Part shown: positions 5,605-31,142 of the stretch, one piece after another
Position numbering within the stretch: position 1 is the stretch's first letter
Layout: every line of letters begins with the position of its first letter
Source: a virus
Lineage: Duplodnaviria; Heunggongvirae; Uroviricota; Caudoviricetes
Length of the DNA: 40,471 nucleotides
Strand: one strand, 5' to 3'
IMG/VR virus record: IMGVR_UViG_2547132281_000014
Location: 1-40,471 of that record
Translations under genes and position numbers: made by a program
The notes under the pieces: generated by a model
What the model saw: only the letters and a program-made list of their open reading frames with translations
Database searches by the model: none
What the model was told of the DNA's origin: nothing

Positions 5605-5627
5605 GCCAAGACTACACACAGCATCAA

Positions 5628-5751
5628 GTTGTGGTGCCGGGTGCCTCCCGGTGCCTGGCGAAGGTTGCACACCAGGCGGGTGGGTATCCACAGAAGGTCG
5701 ACTGTCAGCCTCAACCTTAACCCGCGTGCGCTGAGCCGCATTCACCACAAC
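5628..5751. other. closed multi-helix structured element of unknown function (candidate ncRNA or cis-regulatory RNA)
   Basis: Long-range 9-bp helix GTTGTGGTG (5628-5636) / CACCACAAC (5743-5751) encloses nested hairpins CCGGG..CCCGG, GCCTGG..CCAGGC and GCGGGT..ACCCGC; GC-rich island with no convincing ORF on either strand. Confidence 0.3.
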
Positions 5752-5891
5752 GCTAAGGATTCTCTCTGGTTGAAAATACTTAGCTGTTATGTGCCTGCTT
5801 TTAGCCACATCAGGCGAGGTGGACCTGGTTATTCCCCAACAACAAGGATTCGGTTAATCTGGTTATCCCCAACAACGCAAAAGGAAAAGAA

Positions 5892-10675: not shown

Positions 10676-11164
10676 ATGAGTCTTTTGAATGAAGTTCAGA
10701 AATTCATTGAAGCCCATCCGGGCTGTACTTCCGGAGACATTGCGGATGCTTTTGCAGGTTACTCACGGCAGCGCGTTCTGCAGTCAGCAAGCAAGTTACG
10801 TCAGAGTGGGCGTGTGGCTCACTATTGTGAAGGGGATACACGCAGACATTTCCCGCGCCTGACTGAGAGAGCGCAGGAGCCGGAACCGCAACCAGTTCGT
10901 GAAACCAGACCTGTGCGCAATTTCTATGTCGGCACTAACGATCCACGGGTGATTTTGTGCCTGACCCGCCAGGCTGAAGAACTGGAGTCCAGGGGCCTAT
11001 ACCGTCGTGCTGCAACGGTGTGGATGGCGGCATTCCGTGAAAGCCACTCCCAGCCAGAACGAAACAATTTTCTGGCGCGTCGTGAGCAGTGCTTACAGAA
11101 AAGCAGCAAGCGCGCTGCATCGGGTGAAGAGTGGTATCTGTCAGGGAATTACGTGGGGGCTTAA
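10676..11164 (+). CDS. PerC-like transcriptional regulator with N-terminal winged-helix
   Basis: C-terminal LESRGLYRRAATVWMAAF resembles the PerC signature LEDKGLWRRAADRWM (from memory); ATG at 10676 just after the upstream stop. Confidence 0.5.
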   Translation: MSLLNEVQKFIEAHPGCTSGDIADAFAGYSRQRVLQSASKLRQSGRVAHYCEGDTRRHFPRLTERAQEPEPQPVRETRPVRNFYVGTNDPRVILCLTRQAEELESRGLYRRAATVWMAAFRESHSQPERNNFLARREQCLQKSSKRAASGEEWYLSGNYVGA

Positions 11165-11817
11165 TGAGTAATAAATATTGCCAGGCGCTGGTGGAACTGC
11201 GGAACAAACCAGCCCATGAACTGAAGGAAGTGGGCGATCAGTGGCGCACGCCAGATAACATTTTCTGGGGAATTAACACCCTGTTTGGTCCGTTTGTTCT
11301 GGATCTGTTCACTGACGGTGATAACGCCAAATGTGCCGCGTATTACACGGCGGAAGACAACGCGCTGGCGCATGACTGGTCAGAACGTCTTGCGGAGCTT
11401 AAAGGTGCTGCCTTTGGTAATCCCCCATACAGCCGCGCCATTCAGCATGAGGGGCAATACATCACCGGCATGCGTTACATCATGAAGCATGCCAGAGCCA
11501 TGCGTGATAAAGGCGGGCGCTATGTTTTCCTGATCAAAGCTGCCACCAGCGAAGTGTGGTGGCCGGAAGATGCAGATCATATTGCTTTTATTCGCGGGCG
11601 TATTGGTTTTGAACTGCCTGCCTGGTTTATCCCGAAGGATGAGAAGCAGGTGCCGACAGGCGCTTTCTTCGCTGGTGCTATTGCTGTTTTCGACAAGACC
11701 TGGAAGGGACCGGCAATCAGCTACATCGGGCGCGATGAACTTGAGGCATGTGGTGAGGCGTTTCTGGCGCAGGTTCGCCAGCAGGCGGAAAAACTGGTCA
11801 GGGAGATGGCGGCATGA
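11164..11817 (+). CDS. phage DNA N6-adenine methyltransferase (Dam-like, orphan)
   Basis: Catalytic GNPPY motif; TAATG coupling to the upstream gene; no adjacent restriction endonuclease. Confidence 0.8.
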   Translation: MSNKYCQALVELRNKPAHELKEVGDQWRTPDNIFWGINTLFGPFVLDLFTDGDNAKCAAYYTAEDNALAHDWSERLAELKGAAFGNPPYSRAIQHEGQYITGMRYIMKHARAMRDKGGRYVFLIKAATSEVWWPEDADHIAFIRGRIGFELPAWFIPKDEKQVPTGAFFAGAIAVFDKTWKGPAISYIGRDELEACGEAFLAQVRQQAEKLVREMAA

Positions 11818-14355: not shown

Positions 14356-14721
14356 GTGATGCGTGATATTCAGATGGTTCTGGATCGTTGGGGAGCATGG
14401 GCGGCGAGTGATAGTTCAGGAGTAGATTATTCTCCTATAGCTGCTGGGTTTAAAGGGCTTCTTCCCTATACAAGCAAAACACGTCAGGCTTGTTCAGATA
14501 GTGATGCATTAATTATTGAAGGTTGTCTTGCTCGTCTAAAGCAAAAAAGGCCGGACGAACATTCGCTTCTTGTTGCCCATTACCTATACGGTATCTCTAA
14601 AAGAAAGCTCGCCAAGGCTAGTAAAAAGGATGAGAAACTAATACGCATTGAGATACAGATGGCTGAGGGATTTATCGATGGTTGCCTTAGTATGCTCGAT
14701 ATACGTTTAGAATGTGAATAG
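14356..14721 (+). CDS. late-gene antiterminator Q (QuuD-like family)
   Basis: N-terminal MRDIQMVLDRWGAWAA ... IAAGFKGL matches my memory of DLP12 QuuD; upstream of the lysis cassette. Confidence 0.75.
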   Translation: MMRDIQMVLDRWGAWAASDSSGVDYSPIAAGFKGLLPYTSKTRQACSDSDALIIEGCLARLKQKRPDEHSLLVAHYLYGISKRKLAKASKKDEKLIRIEIQMAEGFIDGCLSMLDIRLECE

Positions 14722-14758: not shown

Positions 14759-14933
14759 AACTGTTTTTTATGACTGAACCTGTGGTGCAACTTAAAAAGT
14801 TACTGTAGCCATTGACGCCATTGTTGCTTGTTTTTTGAGCAGTGGATGGAATGCTTGCTGGCTTAGGCGCAGCTGTAGTTGTATGCCTGTTAGTATAGAC
14901 TACAAAGTTACCTGTAGATGATTTGTTATCCAT
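14754..14933 (-). CDS. possible small ORF (59 aa, Ser/Thr/Asn-rich) coupled to the serine peptidase gene
   Basis: ATG at 14933 overlaps the peptidase stop (ATGGATAA); MDNKSSTGNFVVYTNRHTTTAAPKPASIPSTAQKTSNNGVNGYSNFLSCTTGSVIKNSF; below the 60-aa track cut-off, low complexity, may not be translated. Confidence 0.25.
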   Translation of the reverse strand: MDNKSSTGNFVVYTNRHTTTAAPKPASIPSTAQKTSNNGVNGYSNFLSCTTGSVIKNSF

Positions 14934-15921
14934 GTCGAGCCCACCCCTCTGAGATAAGGTTATGATTTATGCCGAACTGACCTGGGACGCCTGGAACTTG
15001 CAAACGCTGTAACATCCCCTCAGTGCGGAATTGATATGAAAACGTGTCTGGAGCCTCTAAAATGCTTCTGACAGATACGTACGATGCCTGGTTAACTGTT
15101 CCTAAGATAGCATTTGGGTCAAAAGGTTCACCCAGATGCATCTCAGTTTTGAAATCTTCATAAATTTCTTTGATCAGACTGTAAAGGTGCTCATCTGGTT
15201 TTTCCACCGTAAGACCTAAATCGTTTACCGCTTCAATCCTATTTATAGTGTAGTCATGGCTACCAGAATCACTACAAAGGAAACTTACAATTTTCTCAAT
15301 GCTTTCACTATCAGTGAGTTGGTGAGACAGTAGTTTTCTTGCGAGCATTTGAATCTGCGCTTTAGCTCGATAGACTTTTCCAAGTACCAAGGGATGAACC
15401 TTTTCACTTAATGCAAGGAGGATCTGTGCAAGTGAGGCATCATCTTTGATATTCAAATCATGCTTAACTACTTCAAGATAGCCATTGATTTCTTCAACAC
15501 TGACTGGAAGTTGAAGTGGCTGCCCATTGATTATGGCCGAAGGGTTAAGTGGTGTATTCACACTTGGATCGATTGGCCCTAAGGTTGCCTGCTTGGTCAT
15601 AACCAAGTTGTTCGCGCCAAGGCACATTATCGTCCCAGAACTATGGCATTTTGATGGGATTATGATTTCGAGTTCTTTACAAAACTGACGAAGCAGGTTT
15701 ACAAGGCTCCATGCTGTTAAAGTGTCGCCGCCTCGCGTATAGAGCACGAGGCTAATTTTTTGAACATCACCTATCACATCAAGATGATTGACGAACAGAT
15801 CGAATACATCAGCGCTGATTTGAGCTTCTTGGTTTGGTCTATCACCTGTTACATAGCATAATACTTTTGAATTGCGTGCTTGTTCCAGTTGCGCATACAG
15901 GGCTTTACGCTGCTCAAACAT
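14926..15921 (-). CDS. ClpP/SppA-fold (SDH-type) serine peptidase, 331 aa, cargo gene in the Q-to-S interval
   Basis: LYTRGGDTLTAWSLVNLLRQF ... SKCHSSGTIMCLGANNLVM ... GPIDP aligns with the ClpP GG..TA / active-site Ser / LGA pattern; ATG at 15921 with AAGGA; AT-rich and opposite to the late operon. Confidence 0.65.
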   Translation of the reverse strand: MFEQRKALYAQLEQARNSKVLCYVTGDRPNQEAQISADVFDLFVNHLDVIGDVQKISLVLYTRGGDTLTAWSLVNLLRQFCKELEIIIPSKCHSSGTIMCLGANNLVMTKQATLGPIDPSVNTPLNPSAIINGQPLQLPVSVEEINGYLEVVKHDLNIKDDASLAQILLALSEKVHPLVLGKVYRAKAQIQMLARKLLSHQLTDSESIEKIVSFLCSDSGSHDYTINRIEAVNDLGLTVEKPDEHLYSLIKEIYEDFKTEMHLGEPFDPNAILGTVNQASYVSVRSILEAPDTFSYQFRTEGMLQRLQVPGVPGQFGINHNLISEGWARHG

Positions 15922-17182: not shown

Positions 17183-17558
17183 GCTGACTATCTCTGCTTT
17201 CTTCTTTACTGTTATTGGCTCTTTCATCTGGTCAGCGAATCACTACTACAGCAAATATCAGCACGAAAAGAAACGTGCTGATGAGGCTGTACAAAATGCC
17301 AAATCGGCAACTGCCATTACCAATAACGTCCTGCAATCACTGCAAATCGTCAATACAGTACTGGAGGCTAACCAGCATGCAAAACAGCAGATCGCACTGG
17401 AGTCACAGAGAACCCAGGAAGATATCAAAATGGCTGTTGCGGATGATGATTGTGCTTCACGTGCTGTGCCTGCTGCCGCTGCTGACCGGTTGCGGAAGTA
17501 CGCGGACAGTTTACGTGAGCGTTCCGGTGGCACCACTGCCACCCAGCCTGACTTCTGA
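17166..17558 (+). CDS. Rz-like i-spanin
   Basis: N-terminal TM (ISAFFFTVIGSFIWSANHYY), coiled-coil body; follows the endolysin. Confidence 0.7.
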   Translation: MKLSYKLTISAFFFTVIGSFIWSANHYYSKYQHEKKRADEAVQNAKSATAITNNVLQSLQIVNTVLEANQHAKQQIALESQRTQEDIKMAVADDDCASRAVPAAAADRLRKYADSLRERSGGTTATQPDF

Positions 17559-17700
17559 TACTCCTGTACCGTTTATACCTAATCCGCTGACGTATGGTGC
17601 CAGTCTGGAGCTGAATGTGAGTCTGTTGTCTGCGCTGGCTAACTGCAATCGGGATAAAGCTGATATTCGTAAAATAGATGCAGAGAGAACTAACCATTAA
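17443..17700 (+). CDS. Rz1-like o-spanin lipoprotein (overlapping Rz in another frame)
   Basis: MMIVLHVLCLLPLLTGC lipobox, proline-rich; starts inside Rz and extends past its stop. Confidence 0.7.
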   Translation: MMIVLHVLCLLPLLTGCGSTRTVYVSVPVAPLPPSLTSDTPVPFIPNPLTYGASLELNVSLLSALANCNRDKADIRKIDAERTNH

Positions 17701-17721
17701 GCAATAAAATTGTCAAATTAA

Positions 17722-18348
17722 TCAGTTGTCAAATGAATATACGTTAAAGGTATATGTCGACATAATTTCACCAAGTACCTCAATACATACACTTTTTTTA
17801 TGAAAATTACTGGGAAATGAACTTAGCTCCTCAAGACATTGCACATAAGTGCTGATATCACTTGCATCACGTTCAAGGAATTTCACTTGACCAAAAGAAG
17901 GAGTTTTAATCTTGGTTCTTTGCTGGATTATATGGATAAAGTGTGTAGTTGGTGAAACTATTACTCTTGAAATATCGGAAATGATGTCTTCTTGAACTTG
18001 CCGATAAAGTAAATCCTTTGGGTAATGGTGTTTAATCTCGATGGTTGCAACATTGCCATTATGTTCAGACGTTAATATCGACTGGTTATAAAGTGATATG
18101 TCAACAGCGCCGATACCGAGTTTTGGATGCTCACTTAAAGCAGTTAGTGTGCTGATTTGATTGAGTATAACAACTAACTCATCACGTATTTGTGTTTCAT
18201 GTTTGCGATTGTAGAAGTAGCCATTCAGTTCATTTAACTTTTTATGCATCCTATCGTGACTAATTGCTTCGATCAGTAAATCCTGAATCATACTTTTCTC
18301 TAGATAATCCGAACGGTTGTAAGTGACAGTATTGTGCTGGCATGTCAT
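17722..18348 (-). CDS. hypothetical protein, 208 aa (AT-rich cargo, second gene of a minus-strand pair)
   Basis: Long ORF with ATG start, low GC, opposite to the late operon; no motif I recognise. Confidence 0.55.
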   Translation of the reverse strand: MTCQHNTVTYNRSDYLEKSMIQDLLIEAISHDRMHKKLNELNGYFYNRKHETQIRDELVVILNQISTLTALSEHPKLGIGAVDISLYNQSILTSEHNGNVATIEIKHHYPKDLLYRQVQEDIISDISRVIVSPTTHFIHIIQQRTKIKTPSFGQVKFLERDASDISTYVQCLEELSSFPSNFHKKSVCIEVLGEIMSTYTFNVYSFDN

Positions 18349-18391
18349 TAATATGTAAAGGTATTGTGAATGCCAGAAAGATAACGAAGTA

Positions 18392-18727
18392 TCATCGATA
18401 GAAAAACTTTACAGCCCACTCGTAAACAGCTTTGTAAATCGGTTCATGGTAAATACTATCGATACTATTCAGATGTGCGATCATCGCCTCCACAGTTGTA
18501 GTGGTTGTTTCTAATATTTCGATTATTGCAGGGCGGTCATCATCTTCATCGAAGTATTCGAACAGCAGTACAGGTTTACCATGCAATTCAGCATCTGAGA
18601 CTCTAAGGTTACAACTACCGCTCAACTCAAAGTGAATTTTGTAATTACCTTCTACAGAATGGCCTACGGGGAAAAAGTATAGGGTGTCATCTTTGTTCAA
18701 AAGCCATTCCCATTCATAACTATTCAT
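18392..18727 (-). CDS. hypothetical acidic protein, 111 aa (first gene of the minus-strand pair)
   Basis: ATG at 18727 with AGGAG 7 nt upstream (the track ORF extends to 18745); acidic EYFDEDDD stretch; no motif I recognise. Confidence 0.55.
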   Translation of the reverse strand: MNSYEWEWLLNKDDTLYFFPVGHSVEGNYKIHFELSGSCNLRVSDAELHGKPVLLFEYFDEDDDRPAIIEILETTTTTVEAMIAHLNSIDSIYHEPIYKAVYEWAVKFFYR

Positions 18728-18877
18728 TTGTGAACTCCTGTTCATTGAGTTTCAACAACTATCAACTACATCCAGCGAAGCATAAAAGATCGTTTATGGC
18801 AAAACCGGAATGGAGTGCGATTCGATTCTGAGAAGGGTGCCACGTATCGTACGCGAACCATCCAAGAGGATTATGCA

Positions 18878-19228
18878 ATGCCCCTACGAACCCCAAAAGC
18901 CTGCCGCGTTCGCGGCTGCCGTAATACCACTACAGACCCGTCAGGCTACTGCGAAAGCCACAAAAACGAAGGCTGGAAACAATACAAGCCGGGGCAATCT
19001 CGTCATCAGCGCGGTTATGGTTCGAAGTGGGACAGTATCCGCGCGCGTGTGCTGAAGCGTGACAAAGGTTTATGTCAATTATGTCTGCATGCTGGTGTGG
19101 TGGGTGAGGCGAAAACCGTTGACCACATCATTCCCAAAGCGCATGGCGGCACCGATGCCGACAGTAACCTGCAGAGTCTGTGCTGGCCGTGTCATAAGGC
19201 GAAGACGGCCCGTGAACGGCTGAAGTAA
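18878..19228 (+). CDS. HNH endonuclease (terminase-associated)
   Basis: Cys/His-rich HNH core CQLCLHAGV ... VDHIIPKAHGG ... NLQSLCWPCH; ATG at 18878 with AAGAGGA; directly upstream of the terminase genes. Confidence 0.8.
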   Translation: MPLRTPKACRVRGCRNTTTDPSGYCESHKNEGWKQYKPGQSRHQRGYGSKWDSIRARVLKRDKGLCQLCLHAGVVGEAKTVDHIIPKAHGGTDADSNLQSLCWPCHKAKTARERLK

Positions 19229-19353
19229 GAACCAGTTCCCATTGCCAGAGGGGAGGGGCGGGTCAAATCCCTGTGACCTGACGTCTTCCGGACTGCCCGC
19301 CCCATCGTTTTTTTATACCCGCGAAAAATGAAATTTAACCAGGAGTGCCGCAT

Positions 19354-19848
19354 ATGGCTGGAACGGCGGGGCGTTCCGGGCGTCGCCCCAAGCCAACGGC
19401 GCGCAAGGCGCTGGCCGGAAACCCCGGCAAGCGAGCCCTGAATAAAGATGAACCTGTTTTTACGCCCATCAAAGGTGTTGAGCCACCGGAGTGGTTCGCA
19501 GAAGAAAATCTCCCTCTCGCCACGATCATGTGGCAACTGACAACCAAAGAACTCTGCGGTCAGGGCCTGTTGTGCGTGACTGACCTCGCGGTGCTTGAGC
19601 GGTGGTGCGTGGCCTATGAGTTCTGGCGACGTGCCGTGAAAAATATTGCCATACAGGGCAACACCATCACCGGTGCAATGGGCGGCAGGGTCAAAAATCC
19701 GGAGCTGACCGCCAAAAAAGAACAGGAGTCCGAGATGAGCAGCACGGGGGCAATGCTCGGACTCGACCCCAGCAGCCGCCAGCGTCTGATTGGCCTGGCG
19801 GGGCAGAAGAAAGCCACTAACCCGTTTCTGAAAATCATCGAGTCATGA
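19354..19848 (+). CDS. terminase small subunit
   Basis: ATG at 19354 with AGGAG; basic N-terminus; immediately upstream of the large subunit with ATGA overlap. Confidence 0.7.
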
Positions 19849-21578
19849 GCCGGAAATCTTACCCCAACGTAAATGCTGCCAATCAGTATGCCCGTGATGT
19901 TGTGCGCGGAAAGATTGTGGCCTGCCAGTTTGTGATTCAGGCCTGCCAGCGCCATCTTGATGACCTGATGGCGGAAAAAAGTAAGTCGTTTCGTTACCGC
20001 TTCGACAAGGACCTGGCTGAACGGGCCGCCAAATTTATTCAGCTGTTGCCGCACACCAAGGGTGAGTGGGCATTCAAGAGGATGCCCATCACGCTGGAGC
20101 CGTGGCAGCTATTTGTGGTCTGCTGTGCGTTTGGCTGGGTCAATAAAGGGTCCCGGCTGCGCCGCTTCCGGGAGGTGTATACCGAAATCCCCCGTAAGAA
20201 CGGCAAATCGGCAATCTCTGCCGGTGTTGCCCTGTATTGTTTTGCCTGTGATAACGAGTTTGGCGCGGAAGTGTATTCCGGTGCCACGACAGAGAAACAG
20301 GCGTGGGAAGTCTTTCGCCCGGCGCGACTGATGTGTAAACGCACACCCATGCTGACGGAAGCGTTCGGGATTGAGGTTAACGCCTCAAACATGAATCGTC
20401 CGGAGGATGGCGCGCGGTTTGAACCGCTGATCGGTAACCCCGGTGATGGTTCATCACCCCACTGTGCGGTGGTGGATGAATATCACGAGCACGCCACCGA
20501 TGCGCTTTACACCACGATGCTTACCGGGATGGGGGCGCGACGTCAGCCACTGATGTGGGCCATTACTACTGCCGGGTACAACATTGAGGGGCCGTGCTAC
20601 GACAAGCGACGGGAAGTTATCGAGATGCTCAACGGGTCGGTACCCAACGATGAACTGTTCGGGATCATCTATACCGTTGACGAAGGCGATGACTGGACCG
20701 ACCCGCAGGTGCTGGAAAAAGCTAACCCGAATATTGGCGTGTCGGTTTATCGCGAATTTTTGTTAAGTCAGCAGCAGCGTGCGAAAAATAACGCCCGTCT
20801 GGCAAATGTCTTTAAAACAAAACACCTCAATATCTGGGTGTCGGCGCGTTCGGCGTATTTCAACCTGGTGAGCTGGCAGAGCTGCGAGGATAAATCACTG
20901 ACCCTTGAGCAGTTCGAGGGGCAGCCGTGCATTCTGGCCTTTGACCTGGCCCGTAAGCTGGATATGAACAGCATGGCGCGACTTTATACCCGCGAGATTG
21001 ACGGTAAAACGCATTACTACAGTGTGGCCCCGCGTTTCTGGGTACCGTATGACACGGTGTACAGCGTCGAGAAAAATGAAGATCGCCGGACAGCCGAACG
21101 CTTTCAGAAATGGGTGGAAATGGGCGTCCTGACCGTTACCGATGGTGCAGAGGTGGATTATCGCTACATCCTCGAAGAGGCCAAAGCGGCGAACAAAATC
21201 AGCCCGGTCAGCGAGTCACCCATCGACCCCTTCGGGGCGACCGGGCTGTCACATGACCTTGCTGATGAAGACCTGAATCCCATCACCATCATTCAGAACT
21301 ACACCAACATGTCCGACCCGATGAAAGAGCTGGAAGCGGCAATTGAATCGGGGCGCTTTCATCATGATGGCAATCCCATCATGACCTGGTGTATCGGCAA
21401 CGTGGTCGGCAAAACCATTCCGGGTAACGATGATGTGGTGAAGCCCGTCAAGGAGCAGGCGGAAAACAAAATTGATGGTGCAGTTGCGCTGATTATGGCG
21501 GTTGGCAGAGCCATGCTGTACGAGAAAGAAGACACGCTGTCTGATCACATTGAGTCCTACGGGATCCGCTCGCTTTAA
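19845..21578 (+). CDS. terminase large subunit
   Basis: 577 aa; ATPase-like N-terminal region and nuclease-like C-terminal region; canonical position before the portal. Confidence 0.9.
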
Positions 21579-21589
21579 CTGAGGTAATT

Positions 21590-21772
21590 ATGATCATGCT
21601 GATTCTCGCGCCTCTGGTGGGCGTGCTGGGTGCGCTTTTGCTGGCGTATGGTGCCTGGCTGATTTATCCCCCGGCGGGGTTTGTTGTTGCCGGGGCGCTG
21701 TGCCTGTTCTGGTCGTGGCTGGTGGCGCGATATCTCGACCGTACACAGCCGTCTGTCGGCGGAGGTAAATAG
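21590..21772 (+). CDS. small membrane protein, 60 aa
   Basis: Two hydrophobic helices; tightly packed between terminase and portal. Confidence 0.4.
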
Positions 21773-23013
21773 TGTTCTTTTCGGGATTATTTCAACGAAA
21801 AAGTGACGCACCGGTGACCACGCCAGCAGAGCTGGCGGATGCTATCGGGCTGTCATATGACACCTATACCGGAAAGCAGATCAGCAGCCAGCGGGCCATG
21901 CGACTGACGGCGGTTTTTTCCTGCGTCAGGGTGCTGGCGGAGTCGGTCGGGATGTTGCCCTGCAACCTGTATCACCTGAACGGCAGCCTGAAACAGAGAG
22001 CCACCGGCGAACGTCTGCATAAGCTGATCTCCACGCATCCCAATGGCTATATGACGCCGCAGGAGTTCTGGGAGCTGGTGGTCACCTGTCTGTGCCTGCG
22101 GGGAAACTTTTACGCCTACAAAGTGAAAGCATTTGGCGAAGTGGCTGAACTGCTGCCCGTCGACCCAGGTTGTGTGGTACCGAAGCTTAACAGTAGCTGG
22201 GAACCGGTTTACCAGGTCACATTCCCGGACGGCTCCACGGATGTACTGAGCCAGGAAGATATCTGGCATGTGCGCACGCTGACGCTGGACGGTCTGGTGG
22301 GACTGAATCCCATCGCCTATGCCCGCGAGGCAATATCGCTGGCAGCTGCGACCGAAGAGCACGGGGCCAGACTGTTCAGCAATGGTGCGGTGACGTCCGG
22401 TGTGTTGCGTACAGAGCAGACGCTGTCGGATCAGGCTTATGAGCGTCTGAAGAAAGATTTTGAGGAGCGTCACACCGGGCTTGGTAATGCTCACCGCCCG
22501 ATGATCCTTGAGATGGGGCTGGACTGGAAGTCGATGGCGCTGAACGCCGAGGACAGCCAGTTCCTGGAAACCCGCAAGTTTCAGCTTGAAGAAATCTGTC
22601 GTCTGTTCCGTGTTCCATTGCACATGGTGCAGAACACCGATCGCGCCACCTTCAACAATATCGAAGAACTGGGGCTGGGATTTATCAACTATTCACTGGT
22701 GCCGTATCTGACCCGCATTGAGCAGCGGATCAACACCGGACTGGTACGAAAAAGTAAGCAGGGCGTTTATTACGCCAAATTTAACGCCGGGGCGTTACTG
22801 CGCGGGGATATGAAGTCCCGTTTTGAAGCCTACGCCACCGGGATTAACTGGGGAATTTACTCTCCCAATGACTGCCGCGACCTGGAAGATATGAATCCGC
22901 GTCCCGGTGGGGATGTCTATCTCACACCGATGAACATGACCACGAAACCCTCCGATGGCAGTAAAGCCGGTAAGCAGAAGGATAACGCCAATGCAGACGA
23001 AACAACGTCTTGA
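21772..23013 (+). CDS. portal protein (HK97 family)
   Basis: 413 aa, follows the terminase, composition and size typical of HK97-type portals. Confidence 0.85.
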   Translation: MFFSGLFQRKSDAPVTTPAELADAIGLSYDTYTGKQISSQRAMRLTAVFSCVRVLAESVGMLPCNLYHLNGSLKQRATGERLHKLISTHPNGYMTPQEFWELVVTCLCLRGNFYAYKVKAFGEVAELLPVDPGCVVPKLNSSWEPVYQVTFPDGSTDVLSQEDIWHVRTLTLDGLVGLNPIAYAREAISLAAATEEHGARLFSNGAVTSGVLRTEQTLSDQAYERLKKDFEERHTGLGNAHRPMILEMGLDWKSMALNAEDSQFLETRKFQLEEICRLFRVPLHMVQNTDRATFNNIEELGLGFINYSLVPYLTRIEQRINTGLVRKSKQGVYYAKFNAGALLRGDMKSRFEAYATGINWGIYSPNDCRDLEDMNPRPGGDVYLTPMNMTTKPSDGSKAGKQKDNANADETTS

Positions 23014-23641
23014 TGTACCGCTGAGTCTGAAATCTGTCAGTGACTCCGGTGAGTTTGAAGGGTATGGCTCCGTCTTTGGTGTAAAGGACAGCCACGATGA
23101 TGTGGTGATGTCCGGGGCATTTGCTGCTTCCCTGCGGGCGTGGAGTGACAGAAAAGCGTTACCTGCGCTGCTCTGGCAGCACCGCATGGATGAACCCATC
23201 GGTGTTTACACCGAAATGAAGGAAGACGATGTCGGGCTTTACGTCAGGGGACGGTTGCTTATTGATGATGATCCCCTCGCAAAACGCGCACATGCACACA
23301 TGAAGGCCGGTTCGTTAACCGGCCTTTCTATTGGGTACGTCCTGAAAGACTGGGAATACGACCGGAGCAAAGAAGCCTTTCTGTTGAAAGAAATCGACCT
23401 CTGGGAAGTCAGTCTGGTGACGTTTCCGTCTAACGACGAGGCGCGGATCAGCGACGTCAAGAACGCGCTGGCCCGCGGGGAAATCCCCGAACAGAAAAAA
23501 ATCGAAAGAGTCCTGCGTGATGTCGGACTCTCCCGTACCCAGGCCAAAGCATTCATGGCCGGGGGCTATGGCGCACTGTCCCTGCGCGACGCTGAGGATG
23601 TGAGCTCTGCACTGAATGCACTGAAAAATCTGAACTTCTAA
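22991..23641 (+). CDS. prohead maturation protease (HK97 family)
   Basis: ATG at 22991 with AAGGA; overlaps the portal 3' end; between portal and major capsid gene. Confidence 0.75.
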   Translation: MQTKQRLDVPLSLKSVSDSGEFEGYGSVFGVKDSHDDVVMSGAFAASLRAWSDRKALPALLWQHRMDEPIGVYTEMKEDDVGLYVRGRLLIDDDPLAKRAHAHMKAGSLTGLSIGYVLKDWEYDRSKEAFLLKEIDLWEVSLVTFPSNDEARISDVKNALARGEIPEQKKIERVLRDVGLSRTQAKAFMAGGYGALSLRDAEDVSSALNALKNLNF

Positions 23642-23655
23642 TCAGGAGAAATACG

Positions 23656-24861
23656 ATGGCGGTAGATATTAAAGATGTCGAACAGGTCGCGCAGGAGCTG
23701 CAGCAGAAGTTTGACGACTTCAAAGCAAAGAACGACAAGCGCGTGGATGCGATTGAGCAGGAAAAAGGCAAGCTTGCCGGGCAGGTGGAAACCCTGAACG
23801 GGAAACTCAGCGAGCTGGAAAACCTCAAAAGCGATCTTGAAAAAGAGCTGCTTGAGCTGAAACGTCCGGCAGGTGGTGCGCAAAATAAACTGGCCACCGA
23901 GCATAAAGAAGCGTTTGTGGGCTTCCTGCGTAAAGGCCGTGAAGATGGTCTGCGCGATCTGGAGCGCAAGGCATTACAGGTGGGCACCGATGAAGACGGC
24001 GGCTATGCCGTGCCGGAAGCACTGGATCGCAACATTCTCACCCTGCTGAAAGATGAAGTGGTGATGCGCCAGGAAGCCACGGTGATCACCGTTGGTGGTT
24101 CCGACTACAAAAAACTGGTGAATCTGGGCGGCACGGCTTCCGGATGGGTTGGCGAGACTGACGCGCGCTCCCAGACTGCCACCTCAAAACTGGGCCTGAT
24201 TGAACCTTTCATGGGGGAAATCTACGGTAACCCGCAGGCCACCCAGAAAATGCTGGATGATGCCTTTTTCAACGTGGAAGCATGGATCAACAGCGAGCTG
24301 GCAACCGAATTTGCCGAACAGGAAGAAATTGCCTTTACCACCGGCGATGGTACCAAGAAGCCGAAAGGGTTCCTGGCGTATGAATCCACGGATGAAACCG
24401 ATAAGGTCCGGGCGTTCGGCAAACTTCAGCATATTGTATCCGGCGACGCGACGGCGGTGACCGCAGACGCCATTATCAAACTGATTTACACGCTGCGTAA
24501 GGCACACCGCACCGGCGCGAAGTTCATGATGAACAACAATAGCCTGTTTGCCATCCGTCTGCTGAAAGACAGCGAGGGTAACTATCTGTGGCGTCCGGGG
24601 CTGGAGCTGGGGCAGCCGTCCTCTCTGGCGGGTTACGGTATCGCTGAAAACGAACAGATGCCCGATATCGCCGCTGATGCGAAAGCCATTGCATTTGGTA
24701 ACTTCAAACGGGGTTACACCATCGTTGACCGTATCGGCACCCGCATTCTGCGTGACCCGTACACCAATAAACCGTTTGTCGGTTTTTATACCACCAAACG
24801 CACCGGCGGCATGCTGGTCGATTCGCAGGCCATCAAACTGCTGAAGATTGCAGTGGCGTAA
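23656..24861 (+). CDS. major capsid protein (HK97 fold) with N-terminal coiled-coil scaffolding-like domain
   Basis: 401 aa; coiled-coil N-terminus (KLAGQVETLNGKLSELENLKSDLEKELLELK) then capsid body; follows the protease. Confidence 0.9.
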   Translation: MAVDIKDVEQVAQELQQKFDDFKAKNDKRVDAIEQEKGKLAGQVETLNGKLSELENLKSDLEKELLELKRPAGGAQNKLATEHKEAFVGFLRKGREDGLRDLERKALQVGTDEDGGYAVPEALDRNILTLLKDEVVMRQEATVITVGGSDYKKLVNLGGTASGWVGETDARSQTATSKLGLIEPFMGEIYGNPQATQKMLDDAFFNVEAWINSELATEFAEQEEIAFTTGDGTKKPKGFLAYESTDETDKVRAFGKLQHIVSGDATAVTADAIIKLIYTLRKAHRTGAKFMMNNNSLFAIRLLKDSEGNYLWRPGLELGQPSSLAGYGIAENEQMPDIAADAKAIAFGNFKRGYTIVDRIGTRILRDPYTNKPFVGFYTTKRTGGMLVDSQAIKLLKIAVA

Positions 24862-24868
24862 TCACTCA

Positions 24869-24895
24869 GGGGCGCGGAACCGCGCCCCTGTTCTG
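24869..24895 (+). terminator. possible attenuating hairpin after the capsid gene
   Basis: GGGGCGCGG-AAC-CGCGCCCC stem followed by TGTTCTG (weak U-tract). Confidence 0.3.
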
Positions 24896-24909
24896 ACGGG
24901 TGAAGAATC

Positions 24910-25110
24910 ATGATCCTGAAACAAGATCTGAAATGGTCACCGGACGGTATGCGTGTTGAGGTCATTCGGGCCGGTGAGTATGACGACGGGGCGCTTCCTG
25001 CCCGGGTGCAGGAGATTGCACTTCAGGCCGGGTTAGCAGAGCGCGGAACCAGTGCAAAAAGCAGTAAAGCGACAAAAGAGAAAAAAGCCACGACCAGTAA
25101 AGAGGGCTGA
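24910..25110 (+). CDS. hypothetical small head-module protein
   Basis: 66-aa ORF between capsid and connector genes. Confidence 0.4.
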   Translation: MILKQDLKWSPDGMRVEVIRAGEYDDGALPARVQEIALQAGLAERGTSAKSSKATKEKKATTSKEG

Positions 25111-25112
25111 GT

Positions 25113-25436
25113 ATGCTTCTGACAATGGAAGAGATTAAAGCCCAACTCCGGCTGGATGAGGATTTCGATGCTGATGACCGCCATCTGCAACTGCTGGCCT
25201 GTGCGGCACAAAAGCGGACGGAAACGTATCTGAACCGGAAGCTCTATGCACCGGATGAAACCATTCCGGACAGCGATCCGGACGGGCTGCACCTGCCGGA
25301 TGATATTCGTCTGGGGATGCTGATGCTTATCAGCCATTTTTACGAAAACCGCTCGTCGGTTACGGAAGTGGAGAAACTCGACATGCCGCAGAGTTTTGGC
25401 TGGCTTGTCGGCCCGTACAGGTACTTTCCGCAATGA
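25113..25436 (+). CDS. head-tail connector protein (gp6-like)
   Basis: 107 aa; position and acidic composition typical of gp6-like connectors. Confidence 0.65.
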   Translation: MLLTMEEIKAQLRLDEDFDADDRHLQLLACAAQKRTETYLNRKLYAPDETIPDSDPDGLHLPDDIRLGMLMLISHFYENRSSVTEVEKLDMPQSFGWLVGPYRYFPQ

Positions 25437-25843
25437 AAATTCGTCAGGCGCAGACCAGCGCAACCTACATTCTGCCGGACCCCGGTGAACTGAATAAACG
25501 CGTCCTGATCCGCCAGCGGGTGGATATGCCCGCGGATAACTTTGGCGTGGAGCCTCAATACCCGGTTACGTTCCGGACATGGGCGAAGGTTATCCAGACC
25601 AGTGCCACCACCAGGCAGGAAACCGCGCAGACCGGGGACGCCATCACCCATTACATCACCATTCGTTACCGCCGGGGGATCACTGCTGATTATGAGGTGG
25701 TCTGTGATGACAGTGTGTACCGGGTGAAACGTCAGCGTGATCTGAACGGGGCGCGGCGCTTTCTGCTGCTGGAGTGTACGGAGCTGGGCGAATGTAGGCA
25801 GAGTCACGGAGGCAGCAATGGCGACTCCCTTTTTTCACGTTGA
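25433..25843 (+). CDS. head closure / head-tail adaptor protein
   Basis: ATGA-coupled to the connector gene; position within the head-completion block. Confidence 0.55.
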   Translation: MKIRQAQTSATYILPDPGELNKRVLIRQRVDMPADNFGVEPQYPVTFRTWAKVIQTSATTRQETAQTGDAITHYITIRYRRGITADYEVVCDDSVYRVKRQRDLNGARRFLLLECTELGECRQSHGGSNGDSLFSR

Positions 25844-26324
25844 TGTTCAGCAGCCCGCCGAGATGCGCTTTAACCGCGCCCGTGTCCGGCGGGCGTTTGT
25901 CATGATTGGGCAGCGTCATATGCGTGATGCCCGTCGGCTGGTGATGCGCCGTGCGCGGTCGGCACCGGGTGAAAACCCCGGTTATCAGACCGGACGCCTG
26001 GCTCGTTCGATTGGTTATATGGTGCCGAGAGCCAGTAAAAAGCGAGCCGGTTTTATGACACGCATTGCCCCTAACCAGCGCAACGGGAAGGGGAACCGGA
26101 TGATCTCTGGTGACTTCTATCCGGCGTTTCTGTTTTTTGGTGTCCGGGGAGGAGCAAAACGTCGTCGTAGTCATCATCGTGGTGCATCCGGTGGCAGCGG
26201 CTGGCGACTGGCTCCACGTAATAACTTCATGGTGGAAACGCTTGAAAAGAACCGCAGCTGGACACGCTATTTTCTGGCGCGGGAATTGCGTAAATCACTG
26301 AAGCCGGAGCGACGACACAGATGA
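25818..26324 (+). CDS. virion morphogenesis protein (HK97 gp10-like)
   Basis: ATG at 25818 with GGAGG; basic protein in the neck block. Confidence 0.5.
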   Translation: MATPFFHVDVQQPAEMRFNRARVRRAFVMIGQRHMRDARRLVMRRARSAPGENPGYQTGRLARSIGYMVPRASKKRAGFMTRIAPNQRNGKGNRMISGDFYPAFLFFGVRGGAKRRRSHHRGASGGSGWRLAPRNNFMVETLEKNRSWTRYFLARELRKSLKPERRHR

Positions 26325-26881
26325 AACTGACGCCTGTTATTGCTGCACTGCGTGCCCGTTGTCCGTATTTTGAAAACCGGGTTGCAGGCGCGGCCCAGTT
26401 CAAAAATCTGCCGGAGGTCGGAAAACTGAAACTCCCGGCGGCATATGTTGTACCGGGTGATGATTCTCCGGGAGAAAACAAAAGCCAGACCGACTACTGG
26501 CAGGAGCTGAAAGAGGGTTTCTCCGTGGTTGTCATACTGAGTAACGGGCGTGATGAGCGCGGTCAGTTTGCCTCGTATGATGTGGTGGACGATGTCCGGC
26601 AGATGCTCTTTAAGGCTCTGCTGGGCTGGAACCCGGAGGCGTGCGGTAACCCGATTACCTATGACGGCGGCACGCTGCTGGATCTGAATCGTCATGAGCT
26701 GATTTATCAGTTCGATTTTTCGGTCATCAGCGAGCTGACTGAAGACGATACCCGCCAGCAGGATGATCTGAACAGTCTGGATGAACTGCAAACGCTGGCG
26801 ATTGATGTTGATTATCTCGAGCCCGGTAACGGGCCTGACGGCGATATCGAACATCACACCGAAATAACCCTTCCTTCCTGA
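26321..26881 (+). CDS. tail completion or sheath-terminator-like protein
   Basis: 186 aa, precedes the sheath gene. Confidence 0.45.
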   Translation: MKLTPVIAALRARCPYFENRVAGAAQFKNLPEVGKLKLPAAYVVPGDDSPGENKSQTDYWQELKEGFSVVVILSNGRDERGQFASYDVVDDVRQMLFKALLGWNPEACGNPITYDGGTLLDLNRHELIYQFDFSVISELTEDDTRQQDDLNSLDELQTLAIDVDYLEPGNGPDGDIEHHTEITLPS

Positions 26882-26889
26882 GGATCCTC

Positions 26890-27060
26890 ATGTTTGTCAA
26901 ACCTGTTAAAGGGCGGTCAGTGCCTGACCCTGCCCGCGGCGACCTTTTGCCCGCCGAAGGGCGAAATGTTGACGAGAACAACTACTGGCTGCGCCGTGAA
27001 GCAGCGGGTGATATCCGGCGCGTGAATAAAAAGGTGAACACCGATGACGATAAGCTTTAA
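26890..27060 (+). CDS. small Mu-like protein (DUF2635-like), 56 aa
   Basis: ATG at 26890; MFVKPVKGRSVPDPARGDLLPAEGRNVDENNYWLRRE...; overlaps the sheath gene start; below the ORF-track cut-off. Confidence 0.35.
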   Translation: MFVKPVKGRSVPDPARGDLLPAEGRNVDENNYWLRREAAGDIRRVNKKVNTDDDKL

Positions 27061-28540
27061 CACCATTCCGTCGAATACGCTGGTTCCGTTGTTTTATGCG
27101 GAAATGGATAACCAGGCGGCGAATACTGCACAGGACAGCGGAGCATCGCTGCTGATTGGTCATGCCAATAACGGTGCAGAGATTGTTGCCAACAGTCTGG
27201 TACTGATGCCGTCGGCAGACTATGCACGCCAGATTTGTGGTGCGGGAAGTCAGCTGGCGCGTATGGTCGAGGCTTATCGCCAGACCGACCCGTTTGGCGA
27301 GCTGTATGTGATTGCCGTTCCGGAAGCCACAGGCGCGGCGGCAACGGTTACGCTGACGGTGACCGGGGCGGCAACCGAAACCGGCACGGTGAATGTTTAT
27401 GTGGGACGTACCCGCGTGCAGGCACCGGTGACCAACGGCGATAACGTCGCGACGATTGCCAGCAGTATCAAAGATGCCATTAATGCCGTTCCGGCCCTGC
27501 CGTTTACGGCCTCATCTTCGGCAGGCGTGGTCACGCTGACCGCGCGTCATAAGGGGCTTTGCGGGAATGAAATTCCTGTCAGCCTCAATTACTACGGCTT
27601 TGGTGGGGGCGAAGTGCTGCCAGCGGGCGTACAGATTGCTATGGCGACGGGGAGCGCCGGAACGGGCGCTCCTGTTCTCACCGGCGCGGTGGCTGCAATG
27701 GCGGATGAGCCGTTTGATTATATCGGCCTGCCGTTCAACGACACGGCCTCCGTTAACACGCTGGTGACCGAGATGAACGATACCAGCGGTCGCTGGAGCT
27801 ATGCGCGTCAGCTGTATGGTCATGTGTATACGGCAAAGATCGGCACGCTGTCAGAACTGGTGACCGCAGGTGACCAGTTTAACCAGCAGCACATTACCCT
27901 GGCGGGGTACGAAAAAGAGACCCAGACGCCTGCCGACGAGCTGGCGGCAAGCCGTACCGCCCGCGCAGCGGTGTTTATCCGCAACGATCCGGCACGTCCC
28001 ACGCAGACCGGTGAGCTGGTGGGTATGCTGCCTGCGCCGAAGGGGAAACGGTTCACGATGACCGAACAACAGACCCTGCTGTCTCATGGCGTGGCAACGG
28101 CGTATGTCGAAAGCGGGGTACTACGCATTCAGCGTGATGTCACCACGTACAGGAAAAACGCTTACGGGGTTGCGGATAACAGTTACCTCGACAGTGAGAC
28201 GCTGCATACCAGCGCGTATGTACTGCGCAAACTGAAATCCGTCATTACCAGTAAGTACGGGCGTCACAAGCTTGCCAGTGACGGTACCCGCTTTGGTCCC
28301 GGTCAGGCGATTGTCACCCCGGCGGTGATCAAAGGGGAACTGCTGGCAACCTACCGTCAGCTTGAGCGTGCGGGGATCGTGGAAAACTACGAACTGTTTA
28401 AGCAGTACCTGGTTGTGGAGCGTGATGCCAGCGATCCGAACCGCCTGAACACGCTGTTCCCGCCTGACTATGTTAACCAGCTGCGTGTCTTTGCCGTGGT
28501 TAATCAGTTCCGTCTTCAGTATTCAGAGGAGTCTGCATAA
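27044..28540 (+). CDS. contractile tail sheath protein (Mu gpL-like)
   Basis: 498 aa; followed by the tube gene, chaperone pair and tape measure in Mu-like order. Confidence 0.85.
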   Translation: MTISFNTIPSNTLVPLFYAEMDNQAANTAQDSGASLLIGHANNGAEIVANSLVLMPSADYARQICGAGSQLARMVEAYRQTDPFGELYVIAVPEATGAAATVTLTVTGAATETGTVNVYVGRTRVQAPVTNGDNVATIASSIKDAINAVPALPFTASSSAGVVTLTARHKGLCGNEIPVSLNYYGFGGGEVLPAGVQIAMATGSAGTGAPVLTGAVAAMADEPFDYIGLPFNDTASVNTLVTEMNDTSGRWSYARQLYGHVYTAKIGTLSELVTAGDQFNQQHITLAGYEKETQTPADELAASRTARAAVFIRNDPARPTQTGELVGMLPAPKGKRFTMTEQQTLLSHGVATAYVESGVLRIQRDVTTYRKNAYGVADNSYLDSETLHTSAYVLRKLKSVITSKYGRHKLASDGTRFGPGQAIVTPAVIKGELLATYRQLERAGIVENYELFKQYLVVERDASDPNRLNTLFPPDYVNQLRVFAVVNQFRLQYSEESA

Positions 28541-28896
28541 TGGCCCGTATCGGGGGAACCTGTTATTTCAAAATTGACGGTCAGCAGCTATCGCTGACCG
28601 GCGGCATTGAGGTGCCCATGAACAAAACGGTTAACGATGACATCATCGGCCTGGACGGTTCAGTGGACCGCAAGGAAACTCACCGTGCGCCTTATGTCAA
28701 AGGGACCTTCAAGGTGCCGAAGAATTTTCCGGTAAGCAAAATCACCTCGTCTGATGAGATGACCATCACTGCCGAGCTGGCGAACGGTCAGGTCTATGTA
28801 CTGTCGTCTGCCTGGCTGCACGGCGAAGCGAACCATAATGCCGAAGAAGGCACGGTTGATCTTGAGTTCCACGGTGAAGAAGGGGATTACCAGTAA
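28540..28896 (+). CDS. tail tube protein
   Basis: 118 aa immediately after the sheath gene (ATAATG coupling). Confidence 0.7.
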   Translation: MARIGGTCYFKIDGQQLSLTGGIEVPMNKTVNDDIIGLDGSVDRKETHRAPYVKGTFKVPKNFPVSKITSSDEMTITAELANGQVYVLSSAWLHGEANHNAEEGTVDLEFHGEEGDYQ

Positions 28897-29165
28897 TGAA
28901 AGAGCTTGAGTTAAAGAAACCGATTACTGCTCATGGCGAGACACTCTCCGTACTGGAGTTTGATGAACCCACCGGGAAGGATGTCCGCGAGCTGGGGTAT
29001 CCCTACCAGATGAATCAGGATGAGTCAGTCAGACTTCTGGCGCATGTGGTGTCGAAATACATTGTGCGGCTGGCGAAAGTGCCGCAAAGCTCTGTCGACC
29101 AGATGTCTCCGGCAGACCTGAATGCAGCGGCGTGGCTTGTGGCCGGTTTTTTCCTCCAGGCCTGA
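28896..29165 (+). CDS. tail assembly chaperone (possible frameshift partner ORF at 29132..29320)
   Basis: Small acidic ORF before the tape measure with an overlapping out-of-frame ORF, the usual G/GT-like arrangement. Confidence 0.5.
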   Translation: MKELELKKPITAHGETLSVLEFDEPTGKDVRELGYPYQMNQDESVRLLAHVVSKYIVRLAKVPQSSVDQMSPADLNAAAWLVAGFFLQA

Positions 29166-29306
29166 CGGCTGAATACCTCACTGATCGCTTCTTTGACTGC
29201 GCCAGCTACTGGCGCATTAATCCTTTCGAATTGCTGAATATGCCGATCAGTGAAATTCCCTTGCTGGTCAGTCAGGCAAACAGGATAGAGCAGGAGAAAC
29301 GCACAC

Positions 29307-31142
29307 ATGGCGGAATTTGAGCTTAAGGCGTTGATCACCGGTGTCGACAGGCTTTCTCCCGCGCTGTCGAAAATGCAAAAGAAAATCCGGGGATTTAAAC
29401 GCCAGGCGGAAGAAGCGTCACAGGGTGGGCTGGCGCTTGGTGGCGGACTGGCAGCGGGTCTGACGCTTTCCCTGAAATCTTATGCCGATCAGGAAAACGC
29501 CGCCACCGGGCTGAAAGTCGCCATGATGGATGCGAACGGCGAGGTTGGAAAGCGCTTTCAGGACATCAATAAACTGGCTATTGGCCTGGGTAACCAGCTA
29601 CCCGGTACAACGGCTGATTTCCAGAACATGATGCAGATGCTGGTGCGTCAGGGGATCCCGGCAGAAAACATTCTTGGCGGTGTGGGTAAAGCGACAGCTT
29701 ATCTTGCGGTACAACTGAAAAAAACACCGGAAGCGGCTGCTGAGTTTGCTGCAAAGATGCAGGATGCTACCGGAACGGCGTCAGAAGACATGATGGGGCT
29801 GTTCGACACTATCCAGAAGGCGTTTTATCTGGGTGTTGACGATACCAACATGTTGTCCTTCTTCACTAAAACCAGCTCTGTTCTGAAGATGGTGAACAAG
29901 GACGGTCTTCAGGCTGCACAGAGCCTTGCCCCCATCAGCGTCATGATGGATCAGATGGGGATGAACGGGGAGTCGGCAGGTAACGCCCTGCGAAAAGTTA
30001 TTCAGTCCGGATTAAGCGTTAAGAAAATCAGGGACGTCAATAAAATCATGGCCCGCCAGAAACTCGGGGTACAGCTCGATTTTACTGACGGCAAAGGAAG
30101 TTTTGGCGGTCTTGATAACATGTTCAGGCAACTGGCAAAGCTGCGAAAACTGACCGACGTTAAGCGAACAGGTGTACTTAAGGCAATATTTGGTGATGAT
30201 GCCGAAACCCTTCAGGTGGTCAATGCACTAATCGATAAAGGAAAGGATGGCTACGATCAGATCCAGCAGAAGATGAATAAACAGGCCAGCCTGAATAAAC
30301 GTGTTCAGGCCCAGCTTGGTACGCTGTCCAACCTGTGGGAGGCAATGACGGGGACCGCAACTAACGGCCTTGCGGCTATTGGCGGCGCATTTTCTGGTGA
30401 CGCCAAAAATATCACGCAATGGCTGGGGGAGTTAGGGGAAAAATTCACGAAGTTTGCGGATGAAAATCCCCGGGTTATTCGCGGCGTCGTCGGGCTTGCT
30501 GCCGGTCTTGCGATTCTGAAACTGGGATTGATGGGCGTTGGCGGTGCCATCAGTATTGTCAGCAGGATCATGTCGATGACGCCGATTGGAATGATTGCGA
30601 CGGCGATAGCCCTGGCTGCGGGATTAATTATCACTAACTGGGATGTTGTCGGACCTTATTTCAAGAAGCTCTGGGAAACCATTGGTCCTTATTTTGAGGC
30701 TGGCTGGGAACTTCTGAAGAAGGTTTTTGCCTGGTCGCCGCTGGGGATGGTAATCAATAACTGGGGACCGGTTGTTAAGTGGTTTCAGGATATGTGGGAC
30801 AAACTGAAGCCAATTATTGAGTGGTTTACCGACAGTTCCGGTGACACGGTCGATGCCATTAACTCTGCGCAGTGGGGCGCGGGTGCTTATGATGCTTATG
30901 GGACGGGAATACCGGCACGGGGATACACACCTTATCAGGCGGTAGATCCGGCTCAGTCAAACAACGCCTCCGGTGCCACAGGCCCGAATCCCTTCATGAT
31001 TAACAAAGCTTCTGCGCCAAAAGTTGATGGTGAGATCAAGGTCTCTTTTGTGAATTCGCCTCCGGGTATGCGGGTTATGGAAACGCGATCCAGCGGTTTT
31101 GATGTCAGCCATGATGTTGGCTATACGCGCTTTGGCAGGTAA
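29307..31142 (+). CDS. tail tape measure protein
   Basis: 611 aa; Ala/Gly-rich with hydrophobic central segment and helical repeats; canonical position. Confidence 0.8.
   Translation: MAEFELKALITGVDRLSPALSKMQKKIRGFKRQAEEASQGGLALGGGLAAGLTLSLKSYADQENAATGLKVAMMDANGEVGKRFQDINKLAIGLGNQLPGTTADFQNMMQMLVRQGIPAENILGGVGKATAYLAVQLKKTPEAAAEFAAKMQDATGTASEDMMGLFDTIQKAFYLGVDDTNMLSFFTKTSSVLKMVNKDGLQAAQSLAPISVMMDQMGMNGESAGNALRKVIQSGLSVKKIRDVNKIMARQKLGVQLDFTDGKGSFGGLDNMFRQLAKLRKLTDVKRTGVLKAIFGDDAETLQVVNALIDKGKDGYDQIQQKMNKQASLNKRVQAQLGTLSNLWEAMTGTATNGLAAIGGAFSGDAKNITQWLGELGEKFTKFADENPRVIRGVVGLAAGLAILKLGLMGVGGAISIVSRIMSMTPIGMIATAIALAAGLIITNWDVVGPYFKKLWETIGPYFEAGWELLKKVFAWSPLGMVINNWGPVVKWFQDMWDKLKPIIEWFTDSSGDTVDAINSAQWGAGAYDAYGTGIPARGYTPYQAVDPAQSNNASGATGPNPFMINKASAPKVDGEIKVSFVNSPPGMRVMETRSSGFDVSHDVGYTRFGR

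Follow-up and report, generated by a model that had tools for sequence, protein, structure and literature searches.

The window analyzed here, all 40,471 nucleotides (nt) of the IMG/VR virus record IMGVR_UViG_2547132281_000014, is an Escherichia coli prophage that carries two short genes on the minus strand, A and B, between the spanin genes of its late operon and the genes for packaging. Gene B encodes a stand-alone protein of predicted PD-(D/E)xK nuclease fold with an intact predicted active site; gene A encodes a small acidic protein that matches no family; and comparison of loci shows the two to be independently mobile cargo genes, not a co-evolved pair. An earlier examination of the letters alone—the sequence-only reading, below—had taken them for a genuine two-gene operon and a candidate defense or toxin–antitoxin-like pair. 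As a guess about the larger protein, B, defense is reasonable; the idea of a matched pair is not supported.

Two open reading frames (ORFs) do lie on the minus strand between the o-spanin and HNH endonuclease genes, at 18392-18745 and 17722-18348, just where the sequence-only reading had placed them. The second was read as a protein of 208 amino acids (aa), starting at 18348, but its product is probably 189 aa instead (17722-18291, minus strand; phrog_12494). The start at MIQDLL, M20 of the longer ORF, is the one used by the Prokaryotic Genome Annotation Pipeline (PGAP), by PHROG 12494 and by all homologs. In the five enterobacterial homologs with alignable upstream regions, a purine-rich, Shine-Dalgarno-like stretch lies 5' of this ATG, and no Shine-Dalgarno-like sequence lies ahead of the ATG at 18348. 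With the corrected start, the 44 nt first reckoned to separate the genes become 100. Gene A (18392-18727, minus strand; phrog_14397; PGAP accession WP_001089763.1) had been described accurately, as encoding an acidic protein of 111 aa behind a strong AGGAG. This motif, at 18739-18735, is 7 nt ahead of the ATG at 18727, a spacing that favors the 111-aa form over the 117-aa ORF; PGAP and the PHROG profile concur. The protein has an isoelectric point of 4.56, with 20 Asp plus Glu residues to 8 Lys plus Arg.

Both are real genes rather than chance ORFs. They match PHROG families (E 1.3e-77 for A; 1e-126 for B), they have homologs across the Enterobacterales, and they are under purifying selection: the ratio of nonsynonymous to synonymous substitution (dN/dS) is 0.10–0.16 for B, where dS is measurable, and dN is about 0.2 for A, in which synonymous sites are saturated. 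The 15 homolog clusters of A come, every one, from Enterobacterales or metagenomes. Both genes are AT-rich, as had been remarked: their GC contents are 0.39 (A) and 0.35 (B), and 0.38 and 0.31 at third codon positions (GC3), compared with 0.56 for positions 19000-36000 of the window and a GC3 of 0.65 for terL.

The sequence-only reading recognized no motif in either protein. For A this stands, in that no family match was found; for B it does not. In an alignment of the B family (61 relatives, 18–69% identical) six residues, and only six, are invariant—K30, E32, D64, E85, K87 and D93—and among them is the PD-(D/E)xK signature, with E32, D64, E85 and K87 as the predicted catalytic residues. E32 sits in the first core helix, D64 where strand 2 begins, and E85xK87 in strand 3, positions that fit the predicted helix and strands, and the model has the alpha-beta-beta-beta-alpha-beta core of the fold. 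In structure, it matches type II restriction enzymes best. We infer that B is a Mg2+-dependent endonuclease.

The family is rare: an exhaustive profile search of 1.84 billion clustered proteins yields 42 representatives. Searches of Pfam, NCBIfam and PADLOC with B itself give nothing above noise; a Foldseek search of its model against PDB and BFVD gives no match at E 0.001 or better; and the family profile finds nothing significant among PDB sequences. One relative, P0084, which the B-family profile retrieves at 3e-42, scores 24.1 bits against PDDEXK_4, where the gathering score is 22.3. Other relatives have weak, sub-threshold matches to HSDR_N, PDDEXK_9 and DpnII-MboI, and there are weak matches to SduA and REase_II as well. 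Some carry a C-terminal DUF6508 domain, on which a literature search found nothing.

Not every copy of B is whole. In one IMG/VR locus (L081) an IS3-family insertion sequence splits the gene after codon 38; in two others (L082 and L083) the break falls at that codon, too; and split or truncated copies turn up in a few complete E. coli genomes (H67, H68). Such copies are a minority, and they would fit a view of A and B as decaying, functionless hitch-hikers. Set against them are strong purifying selection across genera, catalytic residues that do not vary down to 18% identity, and intact copies of B in approximately 74 of the 79 E. coli genomes that have it, and decay is barely credible as a general account.

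Gene A is less forthcoming. Nothing above noise emerges from Pfam, PADLOC or NCBIfam, and nothing significant from a search of PDB sequences with its family profile; a match to CPR-C4 in the PDB profile search (E 0.08) was dismissed as chance. Comparisons with TaiEcA and orf65 of phage phi80, with Bor and lambdap78 of phage lambda, and with the 77-aa ORF upstream of B in Enterobacter, were all negative. Gene A encodes no signal peptide and no transmembrane or hydrophobic segment, and gene B no signal peptide, lipobox or hydrophobic segment (the maximum 19-residue hydropathy of the two is 0.95–0.97), so both are expected to be cytoplasmic rather than envelope conversion factors like Bor and Iss. 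No homology of either to phage structural or lysis accessory proteins was found, an outcome in keeping with the sequence-only reading. The independent distribution of A, to which we now turn, suggests that this cytoplasmic protein, unrelated to B, has an accessory role of its own; defense, anti-defense (as a DNA-mimic-like inhibitor) or something else are all conceivable.

Viewed in complete E. coli genomes, A and B seem inseparable. At 95% identity or higher, A occurs in 78 of 5426 genomes and B in 79, mostly together. They lie in tandem on the same strand, a strong Shine-Dalgarno sequence precedes A, and in its small size and acidity A resembles many nuclease inhibitors or DNA mimics. From these traits one can construct a toxin–antitoxin-like or two-component defense operon in which A neutralizes or regulates the B nuclease. 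Diverged loci tell against it. Joint occurrence in E. coli is, judged by the high identity of the copies, that of one recent lineage, and A–B linkage is limited to this lineage (identity of at least 94%). Among IMG/VR loci, A is absent from all 27 in which B is at most 71% identical, and B is absent from all 10 in which A is at most 74% identical. In Klebsiella electrica, B stands alone, directly adjoining terS; in Yersinia enterocolitica and Yersinia frederiksenii there is no called gene or credible ORF upstream of it; in Enterobacter an unrelated ORF of 72–77 aa precedes it; and in Proteus a secreted ORF of 103 aa does so. Conversely, Escherichia sp. ESNIH1 and several metagenomic phages have A next to terS with no B.

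Exchange of A can even be seen within the same E. coli prophage lineage. In two members (L051 and L052), A and its upstream region (18418-18877) have been exchanged for a segment (2238-2874 in these loci) that encodes a predicted membrane protein of 151 aa on the late strand, with no Pfam match; B is kept, together with the 126 nt upstream of it. The A–B spacer, then, stays with B when A is replaced, and it measures 100 nt. Searches of Pfam and NCBIfam, moreover, yield no toxin–antitoxin family matches. Separate occurrence in the slot, unlinked diverged loci, the swap of A and a relic of terS at the joint, described below, all argue that A and B are independent. We consider a matched pair to be a long shot. 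There is a caution here that matters: in a single genome, the closeness of the genes and a good ribosome-binding site hinted at an operon or toxin–antitoxin pair, and comparative data did not support it.

The DNA around the two genes retains traces of how they may have come together. The spacer (18292-18391, minus strand) includes a promoter-like sequence, TTTACA-17-CACAAT (18359-18331). Its repeats, all within 18320-18383, are a direct pair of 17 nt each, at 18368-18352 and 18336-18320, which share a CACAATAC core and are spaced 32 nt apart, and an inverted one of 7 bp, CTGGCAT/ATGCCAG. They could be operator-like, or they could be a duplicated junction element; local alignment of the spacer with the element at the start of terS is weak and ambiguous. 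In other genera a TATAAT 5' of B overlaps the ribosome-binding region of terS, and its conservation is likewise ambiguous. The region upstream of A (18728-18877, minus strand), which holds the AGGAG, is kept in A-alone loci from 18813 downstream; a sigma-70 scan of it returned no convincing match. Within it, at 18796-18813 on the plus strand, are 18 nt (ATGGCAAAACCGGAATGG, encoding MAKPEW) that correspond to the first six codons of a foreign terS of the Terminase_2/Sf6 type. In A-alone loci this sequence is the genuine start of the terS that adjoins A, and it borders B in B-alone loci, too. Since the window phage has a different terminase (HNH plus P27-type terS), the relic marks the recombination joint by which the cargo arrived. 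Each gene normally adjoins terS singly; in the lineage of the window they have become stacked.

The place they occupy has a history of its own. The variable segment in the slot between Rz1 and the HNH–terminase genes spans 17670-18877 and comprises B, the A–B spacer, A and the region 5' of A. On its left is the o-spanin ORF, which ends at 17700 (plus strand); on its right are the HNH endonuclease gene (18878-19228, plus strand) and then P27-type terS. Comparison with E. coli prophages that have the same endolysin/spanin and HNH/P27-terS flanks reveals how freely the contents change. In one (L124) the slot is empty, with a mere 26 nt separating Rz1 from HNH; homology with the window ends at 17669 and restarts exactly at 18878. 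The right border, 18877/18878, is seen again in three others (L123, L125 and L051). In an O157:H7 prophage (L123) the slot is filled by iss, a bor homolog, on the minus strand; in another (L125) it is filled by a DUF2441 gene on the plus strand; and elsewhere it holds a GrlR-like gene or other hypothetical genes. Because prophages with the same flanks are either empty here or carry iss, DUF2441, GrlR-like or other genes, the slot is a hot spot for exchangeable cargo. The sequence-only reading had likened it to the position of lambda bor, and this was apt: in lambda, Rz is followed at 32 nt by bor on the minus strand, and iss occupies the very same slot in the O157:H7 prophage. Searches by tblastn and megablast of 50,697 GenBank phage records with A and B yield zero matches, so the genes are known from prophages only.

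What might a gene such as B do for a prophage? The explanation we prefer, which in our judgment stands about as good a chance of being right as wrong, is that B is a prophage-expressed nuclease that acts on incoming phage DNA. Positions from around 17670 to 18877 are an exchangeable 'moron' segment of a temperate E. coli phage, at the hot spot that separates its lysis cassette from its packaging genes, and one recent lineage has stacked two separately mobile genes there head to tail. B would be transcribed from the prophage, counter to the late operon, and its product would cut foreign nucleic acid entering the cell, most likely the DNA of other phages. The lysogen would be protected, either directly or via abortive infection, without a neighboring methyltransferase. 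No terminator-like sites are predicted over 17400-19100, so late transcription must traverse A and B antisense on its way to HNH and terminase. By analogy with the taiEcA gene of phi80, this Q-dependent transcription is expected to lower expression of both genes while the phage itself grows lytically. What the data show is that the genes are real, that the slot is a hot spot, that A and B are independent and that B has a nuclease fold and motif; nuclease activity, expression in the lysogen and a part in defense are inferred.

The company that B relatives keep is of some help in this regard. Without exception, close relatives (50% identity or higher) are cargo of prophages, occupy this slot and run counter to the late genes. 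The distant ones are found further afield. In a metagenomic locus (L023, 755-11938), a distant relative of 221 aa lies within a type I restriction–modification (R-M) operon (hsdM, hsdS ... hsdR), along with other cargo: SMODS/AGS_C and SLATT_4 genes (CBASS-like), an unknown protein of 228 aa, and AbiEi/AbiEii. In another locus (L030), a distant relative precedes hsdR by 3 nt. Small Rep3/Mob plasmids harbor others, with a HipA toxin gene as well on one of these plasmids (L024), and a further relative is beside a HigB toxin module on a separate contig that resembles a mobile element.

Several observations weigh against a defense nuclease of this kind, and they should be set out together. The association of distant relatives with defense amounts to about three of nine contexts, the remainder being uninformative. 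PADLOC-DB v2.0.0 contains no match for A or B, and of the 61 B relatives just one matches a PADLOC model, that of SduA, at 1e-5. No specificity or reader domain accounts for how a nuclease without a methylase spares host DNA, and the phage Dam gene in the window leaves room for a dispersed arrangement resembling R-M. The promoter-like matches near A and B are not above chance, two being found where 4.4 are expected in shuffled sequences, and the same is true of promoter and terminator scans of the window and of A-alone and B-alone loci, whose matches do not exceed shuffled expectation. The near-perfect co-occurrence of A and B in complete E. coli genomes belongs on this side of the ledger, too. 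So does gene A itself: remote homology and structure prediction, the approach that the sequence-only reading had recommended, provide a PD-(D/E)xK fold for B but for A only an unreliable AlphaFold2 model, with a predicted local distance difference test score (pLDDT) of 53, too poor for a fold search.

The dispersed arrangement deserves a hearing. B might be the endonuclease half of an R-M system whose protecting methyltransferase is encoded elsewhere, with three candidates for the protector: the prophage Dam-type N6-adenine methyltransferase (11131-11817, plus strand; PF05869, 1.9e-45), about 6 kb from B; the methyltransferase found after Q in related prophages; and host Dam or Dcm. Type II restriction enzymes are, after all, the best structural matches of B; a methyltransferase of the D12 class lies near B in one Yersinia locus (L010); and the hosts of close B relatives are all enterobacteria, which are Dam-positive. 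Nevertheless, no methyltransferase adjoins B in the window or in any locus examined (L001-L010 and L019-L021). The prophage of STEC1575 (L001), 96–100% identical to the window across most of its length, is instructive. It lacks the phage Dam segment (11168-11807) and carries a different methyltransferase instead, after Q. The two are non-homologous and differently placed, which argues against a single cognate R-M pairing and is a misfit with one cognate specificity, while leaving room for protection by host Dam. Orphan phage methyltransferases, besides, are common anyway. We think it quite improbable that B is half of such a system.

A further alternative is that B, and perhaps A, serve not the lysogen but the phage, in its own lytic cycle or in counter-defense: by degrading host or competitor DNA, for example, by taking part in recombination, or by inhibiting a host defense. 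The genes are within the late region, after all, beside those for HNH and terminase, and neither matches a known defense family; small acidic phage proteins, moreover, are often anti-defense inhibitors. Their orientation is hard to reconcile with this, as they oppose the late operon and late transcription is antisense to both. Their composition is AT-rich and foreign, the cargo is dispensable—the slot is empty in related prophages—and B relatives occur in contexts that are not phage at all, the type I R-M island and the small plasmids. A lytic or counter-defense role strikes us as unlikely, if somewhat less so than a matched pair or a dispersed R-M system.

Returning to B as a prophage-expressed defense nuclease, one can go further and suppose that B founds a new family of single-gene anti-phage proteins, of about 190 aa and independent of methylases, and that A is a second, independent accessory factor, also new: a DNA-mimic inhibitor, for example. 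The home of the B family would then be the lysis–packaging slot of enterobacterial prophages, small plasmids and type I R-M islands, and the cue by which it discriminates self from foreign might be host Dam sites that are under-methylated, a modification of the DNA, or an intermediate of replication or packaging. We offer this larger proposal tentatively, as possible rather than probable.

The remainder of the window is of mixed ancestry. The prophage is integrated beside proA at a tRNA-Thr gene, this tRNA being the sole match in an Rfam search, and it is mosaic, combining early and lysis genes of lambdoid type with an HK97-type head and a Mu-like, contractile tail. Its late operon (plus strand) begins with Q (14356-14721) and continues through holin, endolysin, i-spanin, o-spanin, HNH endonuclease, P27-family terS and large terminase. 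The only plus-strand candidates in 17701-18877 are a 44-aa ORF with a GTG start, antisense to A, and a frame that overlaps HNH.

Directly after Q, and on the opposite strand, is an AT-rich gene (14926-15921, minus) for an SDH/ClpP-like serine protease of 331 aa (PF01972, 1.4e-14; NCBIfam Clp_like_SDH), which has no PADLOC match. In the STEC1575 prophage an NYN-domain gene, a hypothetical gene and a DNA methyltransferase gene occupy this position, and the difference points to a second hot spot for cargo. Protease-like neighbors of these cargo genes recur: in K. electrica (L008, 6773-7650) the gene after B is for a ClpP-like protease, and in a metagenomic phage (L016, 5518-5982) the one after A is an Asp_protease_2 gene, the SDH/ClpP-like gene after Q being the parallel in the window. 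In Y. frederiksenii (L019), two more unannotated genes, for proteins of 240 aa and 206 aa with no Pfam match, flank the B homolog (4080-4802, minus, and 5602-6222, plus).

How much does all this matter? The finding is of a known kind, exchangeable prophage cargo, with one new and rare PD-(D/E)xK family and one orphan acidic protein. The B family is a reasonable and readily testable defense candidate, and if B is a working defense nuclease, it is a compact, single-gene addition to prophage-borne immunity. If so, too, P27/HK97-type E. coli prophages have in the Rz1/terminase slot, where bor/iss and phi80 tai were known before, a cargo hot spot comparable to those of P2 and P4. The practical gain is modest, for the family is rare (present in some 1.4% of complete E. 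coli genomes) and un-annotated: two 'hypothetical proteins' acquire a name and a hypothesis about catalysis.

Among known systems, lambda bor, like its E. coli homolog iss a gene for a serum-resistance lipoprotein, is the positional equivalent of A and B, with no similarity in sequence: in comparisons of A and B with Bor and lambdap78, BLASTP returns E 0.98 or worse. In structural class, B resembles type II restriction endonucleases of the EcoRV/SwaI/BglI group, at 13–18% identity; it differs from them in having neither a sequence-level match in PDB nor an adjacent methyltransferase. PDDEXK_4 (PF14281), the uncharacterized family whose gathering score P0084 passes, has no match in B itself or in 30 other relatives, and it is only listed, without an assigned biological role, in PMC3424549. 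Single-protein, PD-(D/E)xK-like defense proteins without methylases have been documented in E. coli prophages (PMC9519451). The PD-T4, PD-T7 and PD-lambda systems and Shedu SduA are all stand-alone, prophage-borne and immunity-conferring, with remote PD-(D/E)xK similarity and no methylase. B and 60 of its 61 relatives, unlike these named systems, match no PADLOC model, and the role of B is a predicted one.

A further parallel is TaiEcA of phi80. Its gene lies in the same slot and on the same strand as A and B, minus, with the Rz/Rz1 region of a lambdoid late operon on one side and the packaging end on the other, and the protein is alike in size, 204 aa to the 189 of B. By eye, the stretch RNDLAH in the TaiEcA translation (L027, 6366-6980, minus) resembles an Rx4H, HEPN-type motif. 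TaiEcA is not homologous to A or B (BLASTP E 24; hhalign probability below 1%), and since B has a PD-(D/E)xK fold, the inhibition of tail assembly that is the role of TaiEcA is not implied for B. Nor was a late-strand counter-defense gene of the AtiEcA type seen beside B, there being no plausible plus-strand ORF in 17701-18877, though very small genes are possible. It is in regulation that the two situations may coincide: taiEcA (orf63) is constitutive in lysogens, and its expression falls when Q is expressed (PMC11364771). Expression in the lysogen, damped by Q-driven antisense transcription once the late genes come on, is the same logic that we envisage for A and B.

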